Of a stretch of 64,000 bases of DNA, positions 5,583 through 61,997 are shown piece by piece. The first letter of the stretch is position 1. Every line of letters starts with the position of its first letter. Location of the stretch: positions 4,529 to 68,528 of the forward strand of contig JAIPHU010000001.1 of assembly GCA_021735045.1 (NCBI GenBank), written 5' to 3'. The notes beneath the pieces were generated by a model. It saw only the letters and a program-made list of their open reading frames with translations. It was not told the origin of the DNA and did no database searches. Origin of the DNA: Candidatus Omnitrophota bacterium (GTDB lineage Bacteria > Omnitrophota > Gorgyraeia > Duberdicusellales > 4484-171). The position numbers and the translations under genes are program-made.

Positions 5583-6299
5583 ATGGAGAGAGCCAAAATA
5601 GAGGTAAAAAAACGTACCGATAAAGGCAAGCAAGCCGTTAAACGGTTAAGAGCAGAGGGTTCTATCCCAGCCATAGTGTATGGTAAAGATATAAGTTCTG
5701 CAGTTACTGTTTCTTCAGAAGGATTTAAAACTTTAAGAGATATGCATTTTTCTGAGAGTACCGTTATAGATTTGTTTATTTCAGGGGAGAAGAAATCAGA
5801 ATCAATCCCGGTATTGATTAAAGATGTTCAATACCATCCTTTAACCGACAAAGTTATTCACATAGATTTACTCCAGGTGTCTTTGAAAGAAAAGATTACA
5901 GTTCATATTCCGGTTGTTTTAAAAGGAGAGGCAAAAGGAAAAGAAGAGGGTGCTGTACTTGAACAAATATTAAGAGAGATAGAGGTAGAAGGCCTGCCTT
6001 TAAGTATTCCGGAAGATATTGAAGTTGATATATCCGGCCTGGAGATAGGGCATTCACTTCATGTTGCTGATCTTCAGCCTCCTGCTGATATTGCAATTGT
6101 AACCGAGCCTGAATCAACCGTTGCAACCTTGGTGGTTAAAAAAGAAGAGGAAGAAGAGGAAGAGGAGTTGGCAGAAGAAGCGCCTACAGAGCCTGAAGTC
6201 ATAAAAGAAAAGAAGGAAGGCGAAGAGCCGGCTGAGGCAAAAGAAGATAAAGAAGCAGAGAAGCCAGAAGCAAAGAAAGAAGAAGGTAAAAAAGAATAA
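5583..6299 (+). CDS. rplY: 50S ribosomal protein L25 / general stress protein Ctc, with a long E/K-rich C-terminal tail
   Basis: N-terminal L25 fold (RTDKGKQAVKRLRAEGSIPAIVYGK), then about 60 aa of EEEEEEE/K-rich low complexity. Canonical prs-rplY-pth order. Confidence 0.8.
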   Translation: MERAKIEVKKRTDKGKQAVKRLRAEGSIPAIVYGKDISSAVTVSSEGFKTLRDMHFSESTVIDLFISGEKKSESIPVLIKDVQYHPLTDKVIHIDLLQVSLKEKITVHIPVVLKGEAKGKEEGAVLEQILREIEVEGLPLSIPEDIEVDISGLEIGHSLHVADLQPPADIAIVTEPESTVATLVVKKEEEEEEEELAEEAPTEPEVIKEKKEGEEPAEAKEDKEAEKPEAKKEEGKKE

Positions 6300-6301
6300 A
6301 G

Positions 6302-6874
6302 TTGAAAATTATAGTTGGACTCGGTAATCCCGGTAAGAAATATTCTGAGAATAGGCATAATATAGGTTTTAAAGTAGTTGATCAGTTAGCTTGTAAATAT
6401 AAAGTAAAATTAAAACGGACTATTCGCCAAAAAGCTTGGCTGGGTGAACTAAAAATAGATTTCGATAGTTTTTTGCTGGTTAAGCCTAAAACTTATATGA
6501 ATAATTCTGGTCTTTGTGTGGGCAGAGTTTTGGCGAAATACAAAGTTCCAAGACAAGATTTGTTAGTTGTTTATGATGATGTTGATCTAAATTTGGGAAC
6601 TTTACGGATTAAAAAAAGTGGTTCTTCAGGGGGCCATAAAGGGATAGCCTCGATTATTGACATTTTAGGAACAAAAGAAATCAATCGTTTAAGGGTTGGA
6701 GTTGGCCGGCCAACTTTTGGTAGAGGTGGCCCTAACCGGCCTCTTACTGATTTTGTTTTATCTAACTTTTCAAGTGAAGAAAAAAAACAGCTTAAAGAAG
6801 TTATTAAAGAGGCGGCAGAAATTTCATTGAAATGGTTTGAGGATAGACAAGAAAAAACTATTAAAATTAGTTAA
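6302..6874 (+). CDS. pth: Peptidyl-tRNA hydrolase (TTG start)
   Basis: MKIIVGLGNPGKKYSENRHNIGF is the classic Pth N-terminus. Starts with TTG 2 nt after the rplY stop. Confidence 0.85.
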   Translation: MKIIVGLGNPGKKYSENRHNIGFKVVDQLACKYKVKLKRTIRQKAWLGELKIDFDSFLLVKPKTYMNNSGLCVGRVLAKYKVPRQDLLVVYDDVDLNLGTLRIKKSGSSGGHKGIASIIDILGTKEINRLRVGVGRPTFGRGGPNRPLTDFVLSNFSSEEKKQLKEVIKEAAEISLKWFEDRQEKTIKIS

Positions 6875-6876
6875 TT

Positions 6877-6967
6877 GATATCAACGAATTACAAATCAGT
6901 TACGAATATACGGATAAATATTTATAGAATTCGTAAATTAGTATGGATTCGTATGTTCGTTGATGGT
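6877..6967 (+). repeat. TACGAAT-rich palindromic intergenic element, copy 1 (inverted termini ATCAACGAA ... TTCGTTGAT)
   Basis: Two ACGAAT direct repeats in the left half and three ATTCGTA in the right half, bounded by an inverted ATCAACGAA/TTCGTTGAT pair. Sits directly upstream of rpsF. Confidence 0.5.
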
Positions 6968-9970: not shown

Positions 9971-12262
9971 ATGAAAAAAATAGTTTTTACTTTTATTTTT
10001 TTAGGGTTATTGGTTATTTCTTTATCCGGCTATACTCAAGATGCAATTTCTCAGATTCAAATAGAGGGAAATGATCTAGTCAGTGACGCAAAGATAGTTT
10101 CGGAAATTAAAGTTAAAGCCGGCCAGCCTTTTAACGAAAATATAGTTAATGAAGATATCAAAAATCTTTATCAGACCGGATTTTTCCAAGAAGTATCTAC
10201 AGAAACTAAAAAAGGTGATCAGGGCTTGGTATTGATATTTAAAGTAAAAGAAAAACCAGTAGTAAATAAAATAACTATTGAAGGCCAAAGGTATATTCGA
10301 AAAAAACATATTCTTGATGAAATTAGCTTAAATGAAGGTAGCTTTGTTGATGATTATCGGATGAATCAGGCAGTTAAAAAAATTGAAGACCTTTATACTA
10401 AAAAAGGTTTTTCTCAGGCAGTAATAGACTATCAATTAATACCAACTCAAGACCAAAAAGTAGATGTTAAATTTAGTATAACTGAAAAAGGTGTAGTTAA
10501 GGTAAGATCAGTTAAGATTAAGGGAAATAAAAGTTTTTCTGATGATCGAATTAAGAAATTAATGAAAACTCGCAGGGCTTGGTTATTTAACAAAGGTATA
10601 TTTAAAGAAGAAGTGTTTGAAGATGACTTAAAAAGAATAAAAGGTTTTTATCAACATAATGGTTTTACCGATGTTTCTGTTGATTCAGAGGTTGATTTTA
10701 GAAAAAAAGGTGTTTATATAAATTTAACTATTAATCAAGGTAAAAAGTATTATATAGGAAAAATTGAGATTACTGGTAATAAAGAGATTGATACTGCAAA
10801 AATTCGTAAAAAATTAACAATTGCAAAGGGCGATGTTTTTAGTAAAGAAGCGGTTTATCAAGGCTCGTCTCAGATTAGGCAGCTGTATGTAGATAAGGGG
10901 TATATTTTTGCTCAAGCTGAACCGGTTAGTGTTTTGAATCCAGAGACAAAAAAGATTGATATAACTTATGATATTACTGAAAGCCATATTGCTTATGTTG
11001 AAGATATTCAAATAAAAGGAAACGAAAAAACAAAAGGTGAGGTTATAAGAAGAGAGTTAAAAGTTTATCCCGGCGAAAAGTTTGATGGTGAAAAAATGCG
11101 GGAAAGCAAGCAAGATTTAGAGAACTTGGGGTTTTTTGAAGATATAAGATTTCGAACTGAGCCTGGCTCAGAAAAAGATAAGGTGGACTTAGTTGTAGAC
11201 GTAACTGAAGCAAAAACTGGTTATTTTAGCTTTGGCGGCGGTTATAGTTCTATTGAAGAGTTTATTGGGTTTGTTGAGCTGCGTCAAAGAAATTTTGATT
11301 ATCAAAACTGGCAAACATTTACCGGTGCTGGGCAAGATTTGACTCTAAAAGCCAGCCTGGGAACGCTTACCAGCCGTTACCAGTTAAGTTTTACTAATCC
11401 TTGGATCTTTGATCAGCCGATATCTTTTGGTTTTGATGCTTACAAAAAAGGCCATGACCAGGATGATGATGTTGGTTATGCTTATTCAGAAGATATAACC
11501 GGCGGAGCTTTGCGTTTAGGCAAAGAATTTACCGATAAACTTAGCGGAAGAGTCCTCTATAGGTTTGAAAATGTAGATATCAGTGATGTAGTAAGTGATG
11601 CAAGTCAAGATTTAAAAGATGAAGCCGGCAGTAATAATTTAAGCAGCACTGAACTGTCGATAGCTTATGATACCAGAGATAACATTTTTTCACCGAGCAA
11701 AGGGGTTTATTTTTCTAATTCGCTGCAGTTAACAGGAAGTTTTTTAGGCGGAGACAAGAATTTTACAAAATTCTTTAGCAGATTAAGCCTTTATTTTCCT
11801 ATGGTCAATGATTCTGTGGTTGAGACCCGGTTTAAGGTAGGTTTTGCAGATCCATTTTCAGATACAGACAAGGTTCCTATTTATGAGCGGTTTTTTGCTG
11901 GAGGTGCCTCAACCATTCGAGGTTATCGGGAGAGAAAAGTAGGACCGATTGATAAGGGTAATAGTGACGATCCTCTTGGTGGTGAAGCTTTATTTGTAGC
12001 TAACTTCGAATACACTTATCCCTTAGCTGATTTTTTAAAGGTGGCAACCTTTTATGATATCGGTAATGTTTGGTCTAAAAACGATGATTTTTTTAAGGAT
12101 GAAGGAGGGCGTGAAGCTTTATATTCTAGTATAGGTATAGGCTTAAGAGTTAAGACTCCAATTGGGCCGGTAAGCGTAGACTATGGCTGGCCGTTAGATA
12201 AAGAACCGGGTGAAGATGGAAAAGAAGGTAGATTTCATTTTAGCGTAAGCAGAGGCTTTTAA
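9971..12262 (+). CDS. bamA: Outer membrane protein assembly factor BamA (POTRA domains plus 16-strand beta-barrel)
   Basis: Signal peptide MKKIVFTFIFLGLLVISLSGYTQ, repeated POTRA units, C-terminal barrel ending in F. Alternative upstream TTG starts at 9935/9941 are possible. Confidence 0.85.
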   Translation: MKKIVFTFIFLGLLVISLSGYTQDAISQIQIEGNDLVSDAKIVSEIKVKAGQPFNENIVNEDIKNLYQTGFFQEVSTETKKGDQGLVLIFKVKEKPVVNKITIEGQRYIRKKHILDEISLNEGSFVDDYRMNQAVKKIEDLYTKKGFSQAVIDYQLIPTQDQKVDVKFSITEKGVVKVRSVKIKGNKSFSDDRIKKLMKTRRAWLFNKGIFKEEVFEDDLKRIKGFYQHNGFTDVSVDSEVDFRKKGVYINLTINQGKKYYIGKIEITGNKEIDTAKIRKKLTIAKGDVFSKEAVYQGSSQIRQLYVDKGYIFAQAEPVSVLNPETKKIDITYDITESHIAYVEDIQIKGNEKTKGEVIRRELKVYPGEKFDGEKMRESKQDLENLGFFEDIRFRTEPGSEKDKVDLVVDVTEAKTGYFSFGGGYSSIEEFIGFVELRQRNFDYQNWQTFTGAGQDLTLKASLGTLTSRYQLSFTNPWIFDQPISFGFDAYKKGHDQDDDVGYAYSEDITGGALRLGKEFTDKLSGRVLYRFENVDISDVVSDASQDLKDEAGSNNLSSTELSIAYDTRDNIFSPSKGVYFSNSLQLTGSFLGGDKNFTKFFSRLSLYFPMVNDSVVETRFKVGFADPFSDTDKVPIYERFFAGGASTIRGYRERKVGPIDKGNSDDPLGGEALFVANFEYTYPLADFLKVATFYDIGNVWSKNDDFFKDEGGREALYSSIGIGLRVKTPIGPVSVDYGWPLDKEPGEDGKEGRFHFSVSRGF

Positions 12263-12875: not shown

Positions 12876-13907
12876 ATGAACTATAAGCTTTCGCAAATAA
12901 GTGAAATAGTAGGGGGAGAACTTTCGGGTAATCCAGATATTATTATTACCGGAATATCAGGGATCAAACAAGCCAAAGAAGGTGATATAACTTTTTTAGC
13001 TAACCCTAAATATTCTTCTTTACTAAATTCTACGGGAGCTTCTGCAGTTATTACTTCACGAGATATTTCTTCATCTCGGCCGGTAATTAAAACCGACAAT
13101 CCATCTGTTGCTTTTGCTAAAGTGGTTGATTTAGTTGTGGGCCAAAGCTGTAGCCACCCTCAAGGAATAAGTGCAAAGTCAATTGTAGATAAAGGGGCAA
13201 AAATAGCAGATTCTGTTTCTATAGGGCCTTTTACTTTTATTGCAGAAGGAGCAGAAGTAGGAGAAGGTTCGATTATCTATGGCGGCTGTTTTATCGGCCA
13301 TAAGGTAAAGGTTGGTAAAAATTGCTTGGTCTATCCAAATACTACTATTCGGGAGAAAACAGAGATTGGCAATAAGGTTATAATTCATTCAGGAACAGTT
13401 ATTGGCAGTGATGGTTTTGGTTTTGAGCTTAGCGATGGTTCCAGAAAAAAAATACCTCAGATTGGGATAGTTAAGATTGAGGATAATGTAGAAATCGGAG
13501 CTAATGTTACAATTGATCGAGCTCGTTTTGATAAAACAACTATTGGTAAGGGTACAAAGATTGATAATTTAGTTCAAATCGCCCATAATGTTACAATTGG
13601 AAAAAATTGTATCATTATTGCTCAAGTAGGGATATCAGGCAGTACGGTTGTAGAAGAGGGTGCTATTTTAGCGGGTCAAGCTGGTATTGTTGGCCATATT
13701 AAAATTGGCCGGCAAGCTGTTGTTGGAGCCCAAGCTGGAGTAACTAAGTCTGTTCCTGCTGAAACTAAAGTTTCTGGATATCCGGCAAAGCCTCATAGAC
13801 AGGCTGCTAAAATTAATGCTTGTATCCAAAAATTACCGGAACTTAATAAGAAGGTTAAACAATTAGAAGATAAGATAAAATCGCTAGAAGAGAGCCAAAA
13901 AAAATGA
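12876..13907 (+). CDS. lpxD: UDP-3-O-(3-hydroxyacyl)glucosamine N-acyltransferase
   Basis: 343 aa, LpxD N-terminal domain followed by hexapeptide repeats. Overlaps the next gene by 4 nt. Confidence 0.85.
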
Positions 13908-15211
13908 ATAAACAAAAAACAATTAAAAGTAAATTTTTTCTAGAAGGCAAAGGGCTTCATACTGGAGAAAACGCAAAACTTGAATTTTTACCTGCACCGG
14001 TGGGGACAGGAGTTGTGTTTATAAAACAAGACGTTAATCCGCCTATTTTGATTAAAGGGGATTTTAATTCAATTGATGATTTTGATAACTATCCCCGCAG
14101 AAGTTCGATTGGATTAGGAGATAATCATATTCAAACCATCGAACATCTTATGGCATCTTTATCTCTTTTAAGTATTGATAATATCCAAATTAATATATGG
14201 GGTAATGAGATTCCCGGGTTGGATGGAAGTGCCAAAGATTTTGTTGAAAAGATAAAAGAAATAGGAGTAGCTGCCCAAGAAGCTAGCCGAGAAGTTTTAG
14301 TAGTTAAAGAACCGATATGGTTGGAAGAAGGCGATAGTTCAATTGTACTTTTGCCTTCTGATGAGTTCCGTATTTCTTATGGCTTAGATTACGAAAATTT
14401 AAAAATTGGTTCTGGTTTTGCTGATATAGTTTTAGATGATAAACATTTAGATAATTTTTATCAAGCTAGAACTTTTTGTCTTAAAAAAGAAGTAGATAAT
14501 TTGCTTAAGATGGGTTTGGGTAAAGGAGCAAACTATAAAAACACTTTGGTTGTTTCAGACCAAGGGGTTGTCGATAACAAATTAAGATTCCACGATGAGT
14601 TTATAAAACATAAAATATTAGATTTAGTAGGTGATCTTTATCTAGCCGGCCCAATTAAAGCTCATATTATTGCAGTAAGAAGCGGCCATTCTTTGAATAT
14701 GAAGTTACTGCAAAAATTACGGAGATATAAACAAAAAACAAGTAGCGCTGGAGTTCCGTCTAGAGCTGGGTATATTCCAGAAAATACTGAGCTTGATATC
14801 GAAGAGATAATGAAAATACTTCCGCATCGCTATCCTTTTCTTTTGGTAGACAGGATTGTTGAGTTAGACCGGGGCAAAAGAGCTGTAGGGATTAAAAGTG
14901 TTACTATCAATGAGTATTTTTTTCAAGGACATTTTCCTGAAAAACCAGTCATGCCGGGAGTGCTTTTAGTTGAAGCTATGGCTCAAGTAGGGGGAGTGCT
15001 TATGTTGGCTTGTCCTGAGCATCGAGGCAAGTTAGCTTATTTTATGGCAGCTGATAAGGTAAAGTTTAGAAAAACAGTTTTGCCCGGAGATCAATTGGTT
15101 ATGGAAGTATGGACAAAAAAAATTAGAAGTAGAACTGGCAAAGTAGCAGCTAAGGCTAAAGTTGCCGGCAAAGTAGTAGCTGAAGCTGAACTTATGTTTT
15201 CGTTAGTTTGA
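13904..15211 (+). CDS. lpxC-fabZ: Bifunctional LpxC/FabZ fusion: UDP-3-O-acyl-GlcNAc deacetylase plus 3-hydroxyacyl-ACP dehydratase
   Basis: N-terminal about 290 aa are LpxC-like. The C-terminal about 145 aa are a FabZ hot-dog ([28 protein letters not shown]). Confidence 0.8.
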
Positions 15212-15215
15212 AATA

Positions 15216-15346
15216 CAGCCCCAAACCAGCCATTGAACCAGAGTTTGCCTTCAATCAAAGAAAGGATGCAAACACGGTTCAAGGCTGGGATAAACCGTAC
15301 TTGTTCTGGTTCTGGGCAGATAGATAACAGATTAACACAGATAAAG
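15216..15346 (+). ncRNA. Structured intergenic element, family 2, copy A (ACAGCCCCAAACCAG core) upstream of lpxA: candidate cis-regulatory RNA
   Basis: Shares ordered blocks with copy B at 39411: ACAGCCCCAAACCAG, GGCTG, AACCGTA, TTCTGGTT, GGCAGAT, ACACAGATAAA. The internal hairpin differs in sequence but keeps its structure (TTGAACC...GGTTCAA). Confidence 0.4.
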
Positions 15347-24588: not shown

Positions 24589-24594
24589 ATGAAA

Positions 24595-24704
24595 TCATCT
24601 ACGAATGTAGATAATCATCACCGAATATACGAATGATATTACAAATTTTCCTACATTCGTAATTGATTCGTAGGTTCGATGATTATCTTTGTAAATTCGT
24701 TGAT
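24595..24704 (+). repeat. TACGAAT-rich palindromic intergenic element, copy 2 (upstream of rplK)
   Basis: Bounded by ATCATCTACGAATG ... ATTCGTTGAT, with internal inverted pairs GATAATCATC/GATGATTATC and CTACGAATGTAG/CTACATTCGTA. Shares the TTACAAAT core with the other copies. Confidence 0.5.
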
Positions 24705-24721
24705 AAAAAAGAGGATGTAAC

Positions 24722-27134: not shown

Positions 27135-27140
27135 TTTTTT

Positions 27141-27212
27141 GTTCAATGTTCGACGTGCGACGTTCAACGTTATTTTTATAAAAAATATTAACGTAGAACA
27201 TGGAACATTGAA
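27141..27212 (+). promoter_or_regulatory. Long bipartite hairpin between rplL and rpoB: candidate attenuator or RNase III processing site
   Basis: GTTCAATGTTC pairs perfectly with GAACATTGAAC (11 bp), and inner GTTCAACGTTA pairs with TAACGTAGAAC (10/11), around an AT palindromic loop. There is no U-tract after it. Confidence 0.35.
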
Positions 27213-27244
27213 CGTAGAACAAAAACCAATAAAAGAGGAGATCT

Positions 27245-35000: not shown

Positions 35001-35005
35001 AAGTA

Positions 35006-35097
35006 ATCAACGAATGTATGAATCAATTACGAATTTACAAATTTTTATGAACCCATATTCGTATATTCGTAGGGATTAGTAAAATCGTAGATGATAG
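35006..35097 (+). repeat. TACGAAT-rich palindromic intergenic element, copy 3 (between rpsL and rpsG)
   Basis: ATCAACGAATGTATGAATCAATTACGAATTTACAAAT ... ATTCGTATATTCGTAGGGATTAGTAAAATCGTAGATGAT. About 90% identical to copy 4 in the core. Confidence 0.55.
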
Positions 35098-35118
35098 TTA
35101 AATTAACGAGGTATAATT

Positions 35119-37733: not shown

Positions 37734-37750
37734 ATAGAATAGGCAATTGA

Positions 37751-37840
37751 TAAGCAGGAACAATCAACGAATGTACGAATCAATTACGAATTTACAAATA
37801 ATAAAATTCGTATATTCGTAGAGATTAGTAAATTCGATGA
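37751..37840 (+). repeat. TACGAAT-rich palindromic intergenic element, copy 4 (between fusA and tuf), flanked by 10-bp direct repeats GGCAATTGAT / GGCAATTAAT
   Basis: Inverted termini ATCAACGAAT / ATTCGATGAT. The core is nearly identical to copy 3. The flanking 9/10 direct repeat at 37741-50 and 37841-50 looks like a target-site duplication. Confidence 0.55.
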
Positions 37841-37880
37841 TGGCAATTAATAAAATGATTTTTATAAAAGGAGGTGCTTT

Positions 37881-39086: not shown

Positions 39087-39088
39087 GG

Positions 39089-39406: not shown

Positions 39407-39410
39407 TAAC

Positions 39411-39565
39411 ACAGCCCCAAACCAGAGTCGCCTTTGGCGACACGATTTAGGGCTGCCGTGAACCGTATTTATTCTGGTTTATGGCAGATGCACACAGATA
39501 AAATTACCGATAAACACAGATAAAATATCTGTGTGAATCTACTATAGATCTGTGTTTATCTGCGT
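39411..39565 (+). ncRNA. Structured intergenic element, family 2, copy B, between rpsJ and rplC, plus a 3' array of CACAGATAAA motifs in both orientations
   Basis: Identical 15-mer ACAGCCCCAAACCAG and ordered GGCTG / AACCGTA / TTCTGGTT / GGCAGAT / ACACAGATAAA blocks as at 15216. Internal hairpin GTCGCC-TTT-GGCGAC. Downstream palindrome ACACAGAT-AAAAT-ATCTGTGT. Confidence 0.4.
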
Positions 39566-39584
39566 GTAGGTTTTAGGAAAAAAA

Positions 39585-40433
39585 ATGATTAAAGAAATTT
39601 TTGGAAAAAAAATTGGAATGACTCAAATATTTAGCCCCGAGGGTGAGCTTTTGCCTGTCACCTTGGTTGAGATTGAGCCAGCTTGTATTTTAGAAAAAGT
39701 AAGCTACCCCAATAAAGAAAGGGCTAAAATTGGTTGTTTTAAGATCAAGGACACAAAAATTCCAAAAGTGAAAAAGCCTCAAAAAGGTTATTTTGAAAAA
39801 ATTGGGGTACCTCCTTATAAACTTGTTAGGGAAGTGGAAATAGAAGAAAAACCTAAAAGCACTGAAGCTAAAGCAGAGAAGAAAGAGGTTCATCAACCTG
39901 AAAACAGTAACGGCGAAGAAAAAAAAGGCCAGAGCCAAAAAGAAAGCTTACAAGAAAATAAAGATGATTCTAGAAAAGAGCAAGATACAACGGTAAAAAA
40001 AGAGCCGGGGGAAGGAGAGGCAAAAGAAGTTAAAAAAGAAGAAAAAAGTCCAGATAAAGGCCAAGCAGAAAATGATAAGAAAGTTTCATCTCGTTATGTG
40101 GGAATTGAAATTTTTAGCCAAGGCCAACTAGTAACTGTGCGGTCAAAAACTAAAGGTAAAGGATTTGCTGGTGCAATCAAACGTCATAATATGCAAAGAC
40201 AGCCTAGTTCGCATGGTTCTGGAATGCATCGCAGAGTAGGTTCTGTAGGTGCTTCTGCCACTCCTTCGAAAATTGCAAAAAATAAGAAGATGCCAGGTCA
40301 TCTTGGTTCAAACTATAGAGTTACTAAAAATTTAAAAATTTTAAAAGTAGATAAAGAAAGAAAAGTTATTTTTGTAAGAGGAAGTATTGGCGGCAGCAAT
40401 GGTGCTGTTGTTAGAGTAACTAAACAAAATTAA
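39585..40433 (+). CDS. rplC: 50S ribosomal protein L3 with a K/E-rich internal insertion of about 75 aa
   Basis: N-terminus IFGKKIGMTQIF and C-terminus KGKGFAGAIKRHN..GS.G are L3. Between them sits a low-complexity EKK/KEE insertion (282 aa total vs about 210 typical). Confidence 0.85.
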   Translation: MIKEIFGKKIGMTQIFSPEGELLPVTLVEIEPACILEKVSYPNKERAKIGCFKIKDTKIPKVKKPQKGYFEKIGVPPYKLVREVEIEEKPKSTEAKAEKKEVHQPENSNGEEKKGQSQKESLQENKDDSRKEQDTTVKKEPGEGEAKEVKKEEKSPDKGQAENDKKVSSRYVGIEIFSQGQLVTVRSKTKGKGFAGAIKRHNMQRQPSSHGSGMHRRVGSVGASATPSKIAKNKKMPGHLGSNYRVTKNLKILKVDKERKVIFVRGSIGGSNGAVVRVTKQN

Positions 40434-45736: not shown

Positions 45737-45923
45737 AAAATCAAAAGTCCAAAAATGGTTAAGGGATAAAGAAAATCCTAAGTTTTCTACTCGTTACAGG
45801 AATAGATGCAGACGATGTGGAAGGCCTCGGGGTTATATTAGAGATTTTGAGCTTTGCCGAATTTGTTTTCGAGAATTAGCTTGGCAGGGGTTAATTCCAG
45901 GAGTTAAAAAAGCAAGCTGGTAA
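45729..45923 (+). CDS. rpsN: 30S ribosomal protein S14, type Z (zinc-binding, 64 aa)
   Basis: [35 protein letters not shown] has a CxxC...CxxC motif. GAGGAG RBS; start at 45729 rather than the ORF-track 45705. Confidence 0.85.
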
Positions 45924-45966
45924 AACACAGATACACACAGATGAGATATAGATATACACAGATAGA
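45924..45966 (+). repeat. ACACAGATA motif array (3 direct copies) between rpsN and rpsH, related to the 3' part of the family-2 elements
   Basis: AAACACAGATACACACAGATGAGATATAGATATACACAGATAG. The same 9-mer recurs at 15336-46 and 39491-39562. Confidence 0.4.
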
Positions 45967-45990
45967 AAAAATATAAAAAAAGGAAGGACG

Positions 45991-46386
45991 ATGAGTAGAA
46001 CTGATTTAATCGCAGATGCATTTACAATAATAAGGAACGCTACCAGGGCTAATAAAGAAGAAGCTTTTATACCTTACTCTAATAGTTTATCTAAGATATG
46101 CGAGATATTAAAAGATAATGAATATATTGCTAACTTTAAAGAAGCAGAAACTAAAAGTTTTAAACAAATAAAAGTGTATCTTAGCTATGATGGGAAGAAA
46201 AGTTCAATAACTCAAATCAAAAGAGTTTCTCGGCCATCGCGACGTATTTACAAGAAAAAAGATGATAATCTTTCAGTCTTAGGGGGGTATGGGTTGGCGA
46301 TAATTTCTACATCTAGCGGAATAATTACTGGTATTCAAGCTAAAACAAAAGGTTTAGGCGGAGAACTAATCGGGATGGTTTGGTAA
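45991..46386 (+). CDS. rpsH: 30S ribosomal protein S8
   Basis: MSRTDLIADAFTIIRNA is the S8 N-terminus, 131 aa. Confidence 0.9.
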   Translation: MSRTDLIADAFTIIRNATRANKEEAFIPYSNSLSKICEILKDNEYIANFKEAETKSFKQIKVYLSYDGKKSSITQIKRVSRPSRRIYKKKDDNLSVLGGYGLAIISTSSGIITGIQAKTKGLGGELIGMVW

Positions 46387-50215: not shown

Positions 50216-50220
50216 AATGT

Positions 50221-50268
50221 ATTCATTTATCTGCCGAAGGCAGATCCTGCCCGAAGGGCAGCAATGAA
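50221..50268 (+). promoter_or_regulatory. Three-way structured element after adk: outer stem ATTCATT/AATGAAT enclosing two tandem GC hairpins
   Basis: ATCTGCC-GAA-GGCAGAT and CTGCCC-GAA-GGGCAG hairpins are read directly. No U-tract follows. Candidate processing site or terminator variant. Confidence 0.3.
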
Positions 50269-59613: not shown

Positions 59614-59747
59614 CAGGAGTGGTTTAGTATTTTTTCTGTGCCGGCAAAAGCATTTGACAGCCTTTAGTTTTATCGCTACAATTATTCTTAAAAAAGGAGA
59701 TAAGCATCGTCAAAAAGCTTGTTATTTTTTTCTTTGTTTTTATTTGT

Positions 59748-61896: not shown

Positions 61897-61988
61897 ATCA
61901 TTAGCGAATGTACGAATCTTTTGCGAATATACGAATAAGTATTATACTATTCGTAAATTCGTACAGATTAGTAAATTCGTAGATAAGG
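61897..61988 (+). repeat. TACGAAT-rich palindromic intergenic element, copy 5 (upstream of aroK)
   Basis: ATCATTAGCGAATGTACGAATCTTTTGCGAATATACGAAT ... ATTCGTAAATTCGTACAGATTAGTAAATTCGTAGAT. The GATTAGTAAATTCG block is shared with copies 3 and 4. Confidence 0.5.
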
Positions 61989-61997
61989 ATATTTTTT

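Follow-up and report, generated by a model that had tools for sequence, protein, structure and literature searches.

The short motif ACACAGAT recurs in arrays before lpxA, rplC and rpsH in the window, the 64,000-nt stretch of DNA analysed here. Our leading, although tentative, reading is that these arrays all represent one intercistronic repeat module that is specific to a group of related Omnitrophota and would act as a transcribed platform for a putative sequence-specific factor. The module looks like a transcribed spacer element under selection. Omnitrophota are uncultivated; a literature search on intergenic or palindromic repeats in Omnitrophota found no paper describing such repeats. The comparisons cover ~80 kb of the source genome and ~150 kb from relatives, which are referred to by L numbers (L011, Logan SRR31818009; L013, GCA_021735295.1; L038 and L042, both GCA_021735345.1). 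L013 and L015 are sisters (0.89 identity at four-fold sites), and L039 is the outgroup.

The G+C content is ~35% across the window, and almost all genes lie on the + strand. Gene order runs rpoB-rpoC-rpsL-rpsG-fusA-tuf-rpsJ and then through the S10, spc and alpha ribosomal operons, with an lpxD / lpxC-fabZ / lpxA / lpxI cluster 5' of the ribosomal operons. The genes bordering the three arrays encode S10 and L3, S14 and S8, and LpxC-FabZ and LpxA. LpxC and FabZ (FabA-like) domains are found in one 435-aa ORF (13904-15211) immediately 5' of the lpxA array, and this lpxC-fabZ fusion gene is also kept in relatives. L3 (39585-40433), which is encoded on contig JAIPHE010000001.1 of the 'Candidatus Omnitrophica bacterium' MAG GCA_021735365.1, is unusually long at 282 aa; it ranges from 234 to 310 aa among close relatives, and the length variation is due to a lysine- and glutamate-rich insertion.

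The arrays had been proposed from a sequence-only reading, and they are real. All four copies reported before rplC, two forward (from 39492 and 39514) and two reverse (ATCTGTGT, from 39527 and 39548), are exact, as are the three forward copies before rpsH (from 45925, 45935 and 45956), and the rpsJ-rplC spacer holds a further reverse copy with one mismatch. The central palindrome described before rplC is also exact (ACACAGATA-AAA-TATCTGTGT, 39514-39534). The second, outer inverted pair is present (CCGATAAACACAGAT / ATCTGTGTTTATCTG), but the match is 13/15 only. Before lpxA, one copy is exact (15335-15342) and others are degenerate (AACAGAT, 15326-15332, and GCAGATAGAT from 15316), so that the count of two copies given for this site was generous but fair. 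The distance to the next start codon (39585, 45991 and 15366) is 20-93 nt for all copies.

A random distribution of the motif was rejected within the window, because the exact 8-mer occurs eight times in 3,207 bp of intergenic DNA (~5% of the window) and once in 60,793 bp of coding DNA (binomial p for the intergenic excess, 3.4e-10). Eight of the nine exact copies fall in the three array spacers. With up to one mismatch allowed, an 11-mer yielded 11 matches against 1.67 expected, a number that none of 100 shuffles reached. The description of the motif as non-random, restricted to spacers just 5' of start codons and unlike the TACGAAT family (see below) in sequence thus holds. No more ACACAGAT arrays were found in the ~6.7 kb of contig left of the window or in the ~9.4 kb right of it.

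A common build is seen at all loci. An arm of ~40 nt carries four sub-repeats with the core ACACAGAT at spacings of 10, 11-12 and 10 nt. The third sub-repeat is degenerate and keeps only ..GAT, and an F1-10-F2-22-F3 layout is found at every locus. Each arm begins 1-2 nt past the upstream stop codon, and ~20-30 nt separate its end from the next start codon. lpxA and rpsH are each preceded by one sense-oriented arm, and more forward, sense-oriented arrays occur before rplV and ompH in GCA_021735345.1. At rpsJ-rplC, the copy consists of an arm and then, in mirror order, its reverse complement, and it forms a ~90-nt hairpin. Where F1 of this copy is split in the window, L011 and L013 have an unbroken TAA(C/T)ACAGATGCACACAGAT. 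The features in the window are as follows.

39409..39414, + strand: 5' part of F1 (ACACAG) of the rpsJ-rplC module; the family-2 insertion separates it from the last two bases of F1
39415..39487, + strand: family-2 insertion of 73 nt between ACACAG and ATGC, with empty sites in L011 and L013
39488..39526, + strand: forward arm of the rpsJ-rplC module, which begins with AT (the end of F1) and closes with the loop AAAAT; sub-repeats F2 (39492-39499), degenerate f TTACCGAT (39504-39511) and F3 (39514-39521)
39527..39565, + strand: reverse arm of the rpsJ-rplC module, which pairs with the forward arm as a nested hairpin; sub-repeats R3 (39527-39534), degenerate r ATCTACTA (39537-39544), R2 (39548-39555) and R1, the one-mismatch copy ATCTGCGT (39558-39565)
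39575..39587, + strand: rplC Shine-Dalgarno sequence AGGA (39575-39578), A-run and start codon, unpaired in all predicted folds
45925..45963, + strand: single forward arm between rpsN (S14) and rpsH, starting 1 nt past the stop codon; sub-repeats F1 (from 45925), F2 (from 45935), degenerate f ..TATAGAT (45947-45953) and F3 (from 45956)
15213..15218, + strand: 5' part of F1 (ATACAG) of the lpxA module, split by a second family-2 insertion
15219..15319, + strand: family-2 insertion of 101 nt in the lpxA spacer, with a longer internal hairpin
15320..15342, + strand: rest of the lpxA single forward arm, AT (the end of F1) and then AGAT; sub-repeats f AACAGAT (15326-15332) and F3 ACACAGAT (15335-15342)

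The array before rplC had been taken for the 3' part of the family-2 element. This is wrong, as relatives have the array without that element. Judged by sequence comparison, family-2 is a separate MITE-like insertion into the first sub-repeat and not part of the array. Empty rpsJ-rplC sites are present in L011, L013 and L014, where the 105-nt spacer is the array alone, and empty lpxA sites (AGCACAGATAGA..), again with the array alone as spacer, are present in L041, L042 and L043. L038 has a filled rpsJ-rplC site (261-337) at the same position as the window, with an internal hairpin, GATTTTGC-TTT-GCAAAATC, wholly unlike the GTCGCC-TTT-GGCGAC of the window. A further copy lies in the rpsG-fusA spacer of L013 (5973-6045), again at ACACAG^AT. 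The family-2 ends CCCCAAACCAGA and TCTGGTTTATGG are inverted repeats (10/12 matching), and CAG is found at both junctions of the insertion. Each of the MITE features tested was found: terminal inverted repeats, a target-site duplication and empty sites in relatives. All four copies share one orientation and one target, ACAG^AT. Because family-2 prefers this target in the first sub-repeat, it is seen together with the array.

Family-2 copies share 15 conserved nt at the 5' end and ~45 at the 3' end (TCTGGTT...GG), and the internal hairpin is swapped wholesale from copy to copy. By eye only, the fold may be pseudoknotted, with interleaved pairings CAGCCC/GGGCTG and AAACCAGA/TCTGGTTT. Family-2 did not match Rfam. 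A scan of a genome collection with CCCCAAACCAG N44-74 TTCTGGTTNNNGG returned 20 matches, all of them chance matches in unrelated taxa and none from the source MAG or its relatives. IS1397 and ISKpn1 are insertion sequences that insert into REP units. Family-2 is like them in having a target inside a dispersed intergenic repeat and a 3-bp duplication, but it is a non-autonomous element of 73-101 nt with a structured core, and its copies all have one orientation. As a MITE-like element that targets ACAG^AT, family-2 is a natural marker with which cassettes could be followed across populations.

Arrays are found at the orthologous rpsJ-rplC site in L011, L013, L014 and L038, at the orthologous lpxA site in L041, L042 and L043, and at the orthologous rpsH site in L038, with a degenerate form in L039. 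Across nine ribosomal-protein genes, identity at four-fold sites is 0.55-0.65 among the window, L011, L013 and L038, and 0.44-0.49 for the outgroup L039. In contrast to four-fold-site values of 0.60-0.65, the rpsJ-rplC array is 0.92-0.93 identical between the window and L011 or L013 (p<1e-10). In the lpxA spacer of four genomes, 19/21 motif columns are invariant versus 14/32 other columns (p=6e-4). Between the window and L038, the rpsH spacer is identical at 24/24 motif positions versus 10/15 spacer positions (p=0.005); L038 has three exact copies there and retains the spacing of the window, although the spacers have diverged. Cores are therefore kept where spacers and synonymous sites (~40% diverged) are not. 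Since the core remains constant while the spacers diverge, the core is, on this comparison with relatives, constrained at orthologous sites, and such a pattern would be absent from inert repeat copies. Farther out, a metagenome scan with L3 returned distant relatives only (31-49% identity), and the three rpsJ-rplC spacers read from these are plain (~13, 46 and 116 nt) and have no motif. In the more distant Omnitrophota, with L3 at 43-49% identity, the spacers are short and plain.

The module lies inside operons and no promoter dedicated to it is nearby, so that co-transcription within the operon mRNA is almost certain. On the mRNA, the array would be a multivalent single-stranded recognition platform for a putative trans-acting factor (protein or complementary RNA), and this factor would set the translation or stability of the downstream cistron. 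For the rplC copy, the reverse arm may mask the platform or may form a processing and stability hairpin. The genes downstream of arrays are rplC, rpsH, lpxA, rplV and ompH, and the forward-only arrays (lpxA, rpsH, and rplV and ompH in GCA_021735345.1) are all sense. About five independent sites that are all sense give a two-sided p of ~0.06, and with three loci only in ~80 kb of the source genome, such orientation statistics are weak. As RNA, the single forward arms are predicted to be unstructured, with an MFE of 0 (rpsH) and -0.3 kcal/mol (lpxA).

Several observations argue against an RNA platform. The 10-11 nt phasing fits one face of B-DNA and is not required by single-stranded RNA. The forward arrays are no less structured than same-composition shuffles (z 0.4 and 1.2). 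The ACACAGAT hairpin folds with equal energies on the sense and antisense strands, so that no G-U asymmetry points to RNA; over 28 spacers, a mild sense bias was seen, which is confounded by strand composition. A further one is a cassette swap between L013 and L015.

These sisters have flanks that are 98-100% identical up to the stop and start codons, but their rpsJ-rplC cassettes are unrelated: ACACAGAT in L013 (9896-10000) versus (TAAGTCC)x4 in L015 (9927-10000). The sequences suggest that cassettes were exchanged, with the gene ends as breakpoints. As the swap is complete, the ACACAGAT motif is dispensable at rpsJ-rplC. L037 and the outgroup L039 have the TAAGTC type as well; thus both cassette types are old, and their occurrence departs from the species tree. 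The last S10 codon varies with the cassette, GTG in L013 and GTC in L015.

Such cassettes are widespread. Nearly each spacer longer than ~60 nt, in the window and in relatives, has its own short-repeat family, and at least 10 families other than ACACAGAT were seen in neighbouring spacers, with forward copies followed by reverse copies as the usual layout. Families in the window include TACGAAT (five sites), GTTCAACGT-type heptamers (rplL-rpoB), GGACGAA and GCGCTAAGCGC, and families in relatives include TAAGTCC x4, GGTGAGT/TTAACYAA, CGTATGT and GCTAATA. One family may occupy different spacers in different genomes. Spacers in the most conserved operons of the cell thus hold interchangeable short-repeat cassettes, of which at least one (ACACAGAT) is constant at orthologous sites. 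The cassettes would be either a cheap, portable means of tuning cistron output or a highly successful class of genomic parasite, and both outcomes bear on the tolerance or use of repeats in small, streamlined genomes.

The parasite side of this choice, which we consider rather unlikely, is that the arrays have no host function and are tolerated in spacers as dispersed repeat DNA, selfish or neutral, of the kind seen in REPINs, MITEs or minisatellites. The similarity of the cores would then come from replication, gene conversion, exchange among co-occurring relatives or the needs of a mobilising enzyme. Many parallel families of one build (TACGAAT at its five sites, GTTCAACGT, GGACGAA, TAAGTCC, GGTGAGT/TTAACYAA and CGTATGT) are consistent with this, as are the different spacers occupied by one family in different genomes, the whole-cassette differences between sisters and the inverted doublet that forms a hairpin, which is the REPIN layout (PMC3116915). 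Whole units of 10 and 22 nt are gained or lost between relatives at rpsJ-rplC and lpxA, and these indels point to slippage. All close relatives also come from related assemblies (JAIP.. accessions), so exchange between them would be possible. However, the 8-nt core is invariant at three orthologous loci where the spacers and the downstream leader have diverged, and an inert copy should decay evenly. The leader around the lpxA array has diverged, so this array was not recently acquired. In addition, single arms are neither palindromes nor provided with a GTAG or CGTC tag, and no transposase or RAYT gene was found in the ~80 kb of contig read.

In its general kind, the ACACAGAT module is a dispersed intergenic repeat. 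A REP unit is an imperfect palindrome of 20-40 bp that has, on one side, an unpaired GTAG or CGTC tag (PMC3733652), and REPINs are inverted REP doublets that form a hairpin (PMC3116915). Like these, the arrays are short, dispersed, extragenic, mostly located between co-directional genes and probably transcribed (PMC3116915, PMC3733652), several families occur per genome, and an inverted doublet gives a long hairpin, as in the rpsJ-rplC copy (-32.1 kcal/mol, z -6.3 in L011). Unlike a REP, the array unit is four direct sub-repeats and not a palindrome (0 and -0.3 kcal/mol for the single arms), the single arms have no GTAG/CGTC tag, are all sense and abut the stop codon, and orthologous copies are conserved core by core. 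In the window, L013 and L038, a GTAG lies 3' of the rplC hairpin; it is missing in L011 and at the other loci. Given the lack of a palindromic unit and of the tag, the array is not filed as a REP. Viewed as a MITE, the ACACAGAT hairpin has inverted core copies as termini and no visible target duplication, and relatives without the hairpin have another cassette, not an empty site.

Other repeat systems are also similar in part. Cyanobacterial STRRs are reportedly short tandemly repeated repetitive heptamers (Mazel et al. 1990). The likeness lies in several very short tandem families in non-coding spacers of one lineage, and neighbouring spacers here do hold true heptamer arrays (TAAGTCC x4, TCTACGT and GCTAATA). 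In contrast, ACACAGAT is an 8-nt core at 10-12 nt spacing with non-repeated spacers, not a series of head-to-tail heptamers, and it has a fixed four-unit architecture in place of an open-ended tandem array. ERIC and Correia-type elements are imperfect palindromes of ~100 nt in operon spacers that are co-transcribed and can alter the stability or processing of flanking cistrons. The rpsJ-rplC copy is likewise an imperfect palindrome of similar length in an intercistronic spacer, but the ACACAGAT hairpin showed neither a target duplication at its termini nor a clean empty site; it is made of internal sub-repeats, and its half-elements occur as conserved single arms.

The sequence-only reading had favored an operator array for a dimeric DNA-binding protein. 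A related view, distinctly unlikely in our assessment, is that the arrays are DNA-level sites on which a protein sits head-to-tail along one helix face, as on OmpR/PhoB boxes or iterons, and serves as a roadblock or an architectural factor. Successive 8-nt cores follow one another at intervals of 10, 11-12 and 10 bp, close to one turn of the helix, and their conservation between variable spacers is footprint-like. Two-fold symmetry is perfect in the rpsJ-rplC copy, whose two strands fold equally. On the reverse strand, CTGTGT-N4-CTGTGT resembles the half-sites of PhoB, which are CTGTCA at 11-bp phasing, and the direct repeats of 6-8 bp, 10-11 bp phasing and two to four copies are all similar to OmpR/PhoB boxes. 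Boxes of that family replace or adjoin the promoter -35 element, whereas the ACACAGAT arrays lie between cistrons without a promoter.

A sigma-70-like promoter scan of the three array spacers found none, and the same scan found a canonical promoter, TTGACA-17-TACAAT, at 59654-59682, which indicates that promoters of the source genome look canonical. All three arrays are intercistronic within co-directional essential operons, and dyad symmetry is seen in the rpsJ-rplC copy only; those at lpxA and rpsH, and at rplV and ompH in the relative, are direct repeats. The dimeric operator is thus unsupported, since there is no promoter to act on, the sites are intercistronic, two of three lack a dyad, sister genomes have unrelated cassettes at the same site, and one regulator for each of ten families is implausible. 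The same points weigh on head-to-tail binding, which would need a separate regulator for each of at least 10 families and would act between cistrons of essential operons, at a site where a sister genome has an unrelated cassette in place of the array. Moreover, the single arms all have one orientation relative to transcription, and a roadblock needs none. Comparison of the motif with known consensus sequences left the defining cores unmatched for the DnaA box (TTATCCACA vs TTATCTGTG), CsrA (ACA-GGA-UG vs ACACAGAUG), rut sites and IHF sites.

The rpsJ-rplC reverse arm contains three AUCUGUGU copies, phased as in the forward arms. Its predicted pairing with the rpsH leader (39527-39569 with 45921-45993) is -37.7 kcal/mol, compared with -14.8 +/- 3.4 for shuffled targets and -26.5 kcal/mol for its own adjacent forward arm. 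The reverse arm and the rpsH leader are 6.4 kb apart, probably on one transcript. It is a long shot that the forward arrays are multi-site targets of an antisense RNA from their own family. The reverse arm would be freed when the very abundant S10-operon transcript is processed, or would act in cis on the S10-spc polycistron, and would pair with the lpxA, ompH and rpsH leaders. If so, outer-membrane and ribosomal-protein synthesis would be coupled to ribosomal operon output, and the repeat families, at least 10 in number, would each provide a separate code for pairing between spacers.

Structured cis-regulatory RNA (a riboswitch, ribosomal-protein leader or thermometer) that would sequester the RBS is barely credible and already largely refuted: the rpsJ-rplC copy does fold far beyond chance (z -4 to -6), but the Shine-Dalgarno sequence and AUG lie outside the hairpin in all predicted folds, the lpxA and rpsH arrays have no structure, and the three downstream genes have no common ligand or autoregulator logic. 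RBS sequestration, the other function that had been suggested for the arrays, is therefore also unsupported, as the forward arrays are unstructured and AGGA and AUG are unpaired in the rplC hairpin. This hairpin has a predicted energy of -25.8 kcal/mol (z -4.0) in the window, and the uninterrupted L011 copy (-32.1 kcal/mol, z -6.3) shows nested helices F1/R1, F2/R2 and F3/R3. Compensatory changes were looked for in four orthologues of the hairpin, which were too similar; one C-to-U change leads to a G-U pair, and the others are mismatches. Rfam, at the gathering score and, for the family-2 and array regions, at E<=10, returned only tRNAs and microRNA noise. Small upstream ORFs, which CAG-ATG creates at some loci, are missing at the lpxA copy in the window and in L041 and were therefore discarded as an explanation.

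Several of the other families were also mapped. The TACGAAT family forms five imperfect hairpins of ~100 nt, with TACGAAT sub-repeats followed by ATTCGTA sub-repeats, at the following sites.

6875-6959: TACGAAT copy before rpsF
24589-24721: TACGAAT copy before rplK
35001-35118: TACGAAT copy before rpsG
37734-37880: TACGAAT copy before tuf
61897-61997: TACGAAT copy before a shikimate-kinase gene

The TACGAAT copy between pth and rpsF is kept in L043, and L041 has the cassette in another spacer. A heptamer-repeat hairpin of the GTTC(A/T)ACGT family lies between rplL and rpoB in the window (27135-27244), and this family is found between tuf and rpsJ in L011 (1347-1448), L013 (9469-9577) and L015 (9500-9608); the tuf-rpsJ gap in the window is 2 nt only (39087-39088). 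A double-hairpin module (..TATCTGCCGAAGGCAGAT-CCTGCCCGAAGGGCAG.., flanks GTATTCATT / AATGAATCC) is a dispersed element that occurs after adk in the window (50216-50265) and in L015 (20787-20840), and L039 has three copies in other ribosomal-operon spacers, within 6106-6378, 12006-12163 and 14225-14408. Before rplV and ompH in GCA_021735345.1 (L038 3229-3312 and L042 4390-4471), a composite element was seen, in which a hairpin (G)CATCCT...AGGATG(C) is followed by TTTGATTACACAGATTA.. forward sub-repeats.

A further hairpin family has GGTGAGT repeats in its 5' arm and TTAACYAA repeats in its 3' arm (L011 8405-8470 and L013 8168-8240). Its pairing relies on G-U, and the sense strand is predicted to fold 5.6-7.0 kcal/mol better than the antisense strand, which hints that at least this family may be selected as RNA. 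A heptamer array, TAAGCGATTAGCTATTAGCTATAAGCTATAAGC, is present on the contig of the window, ~4.5 kb upstream of its left edge (L044 2127-2200), just upstream of what by eye is a likely tRNA gene. In L039, a GCTAATA array lies between rplF and rplR.
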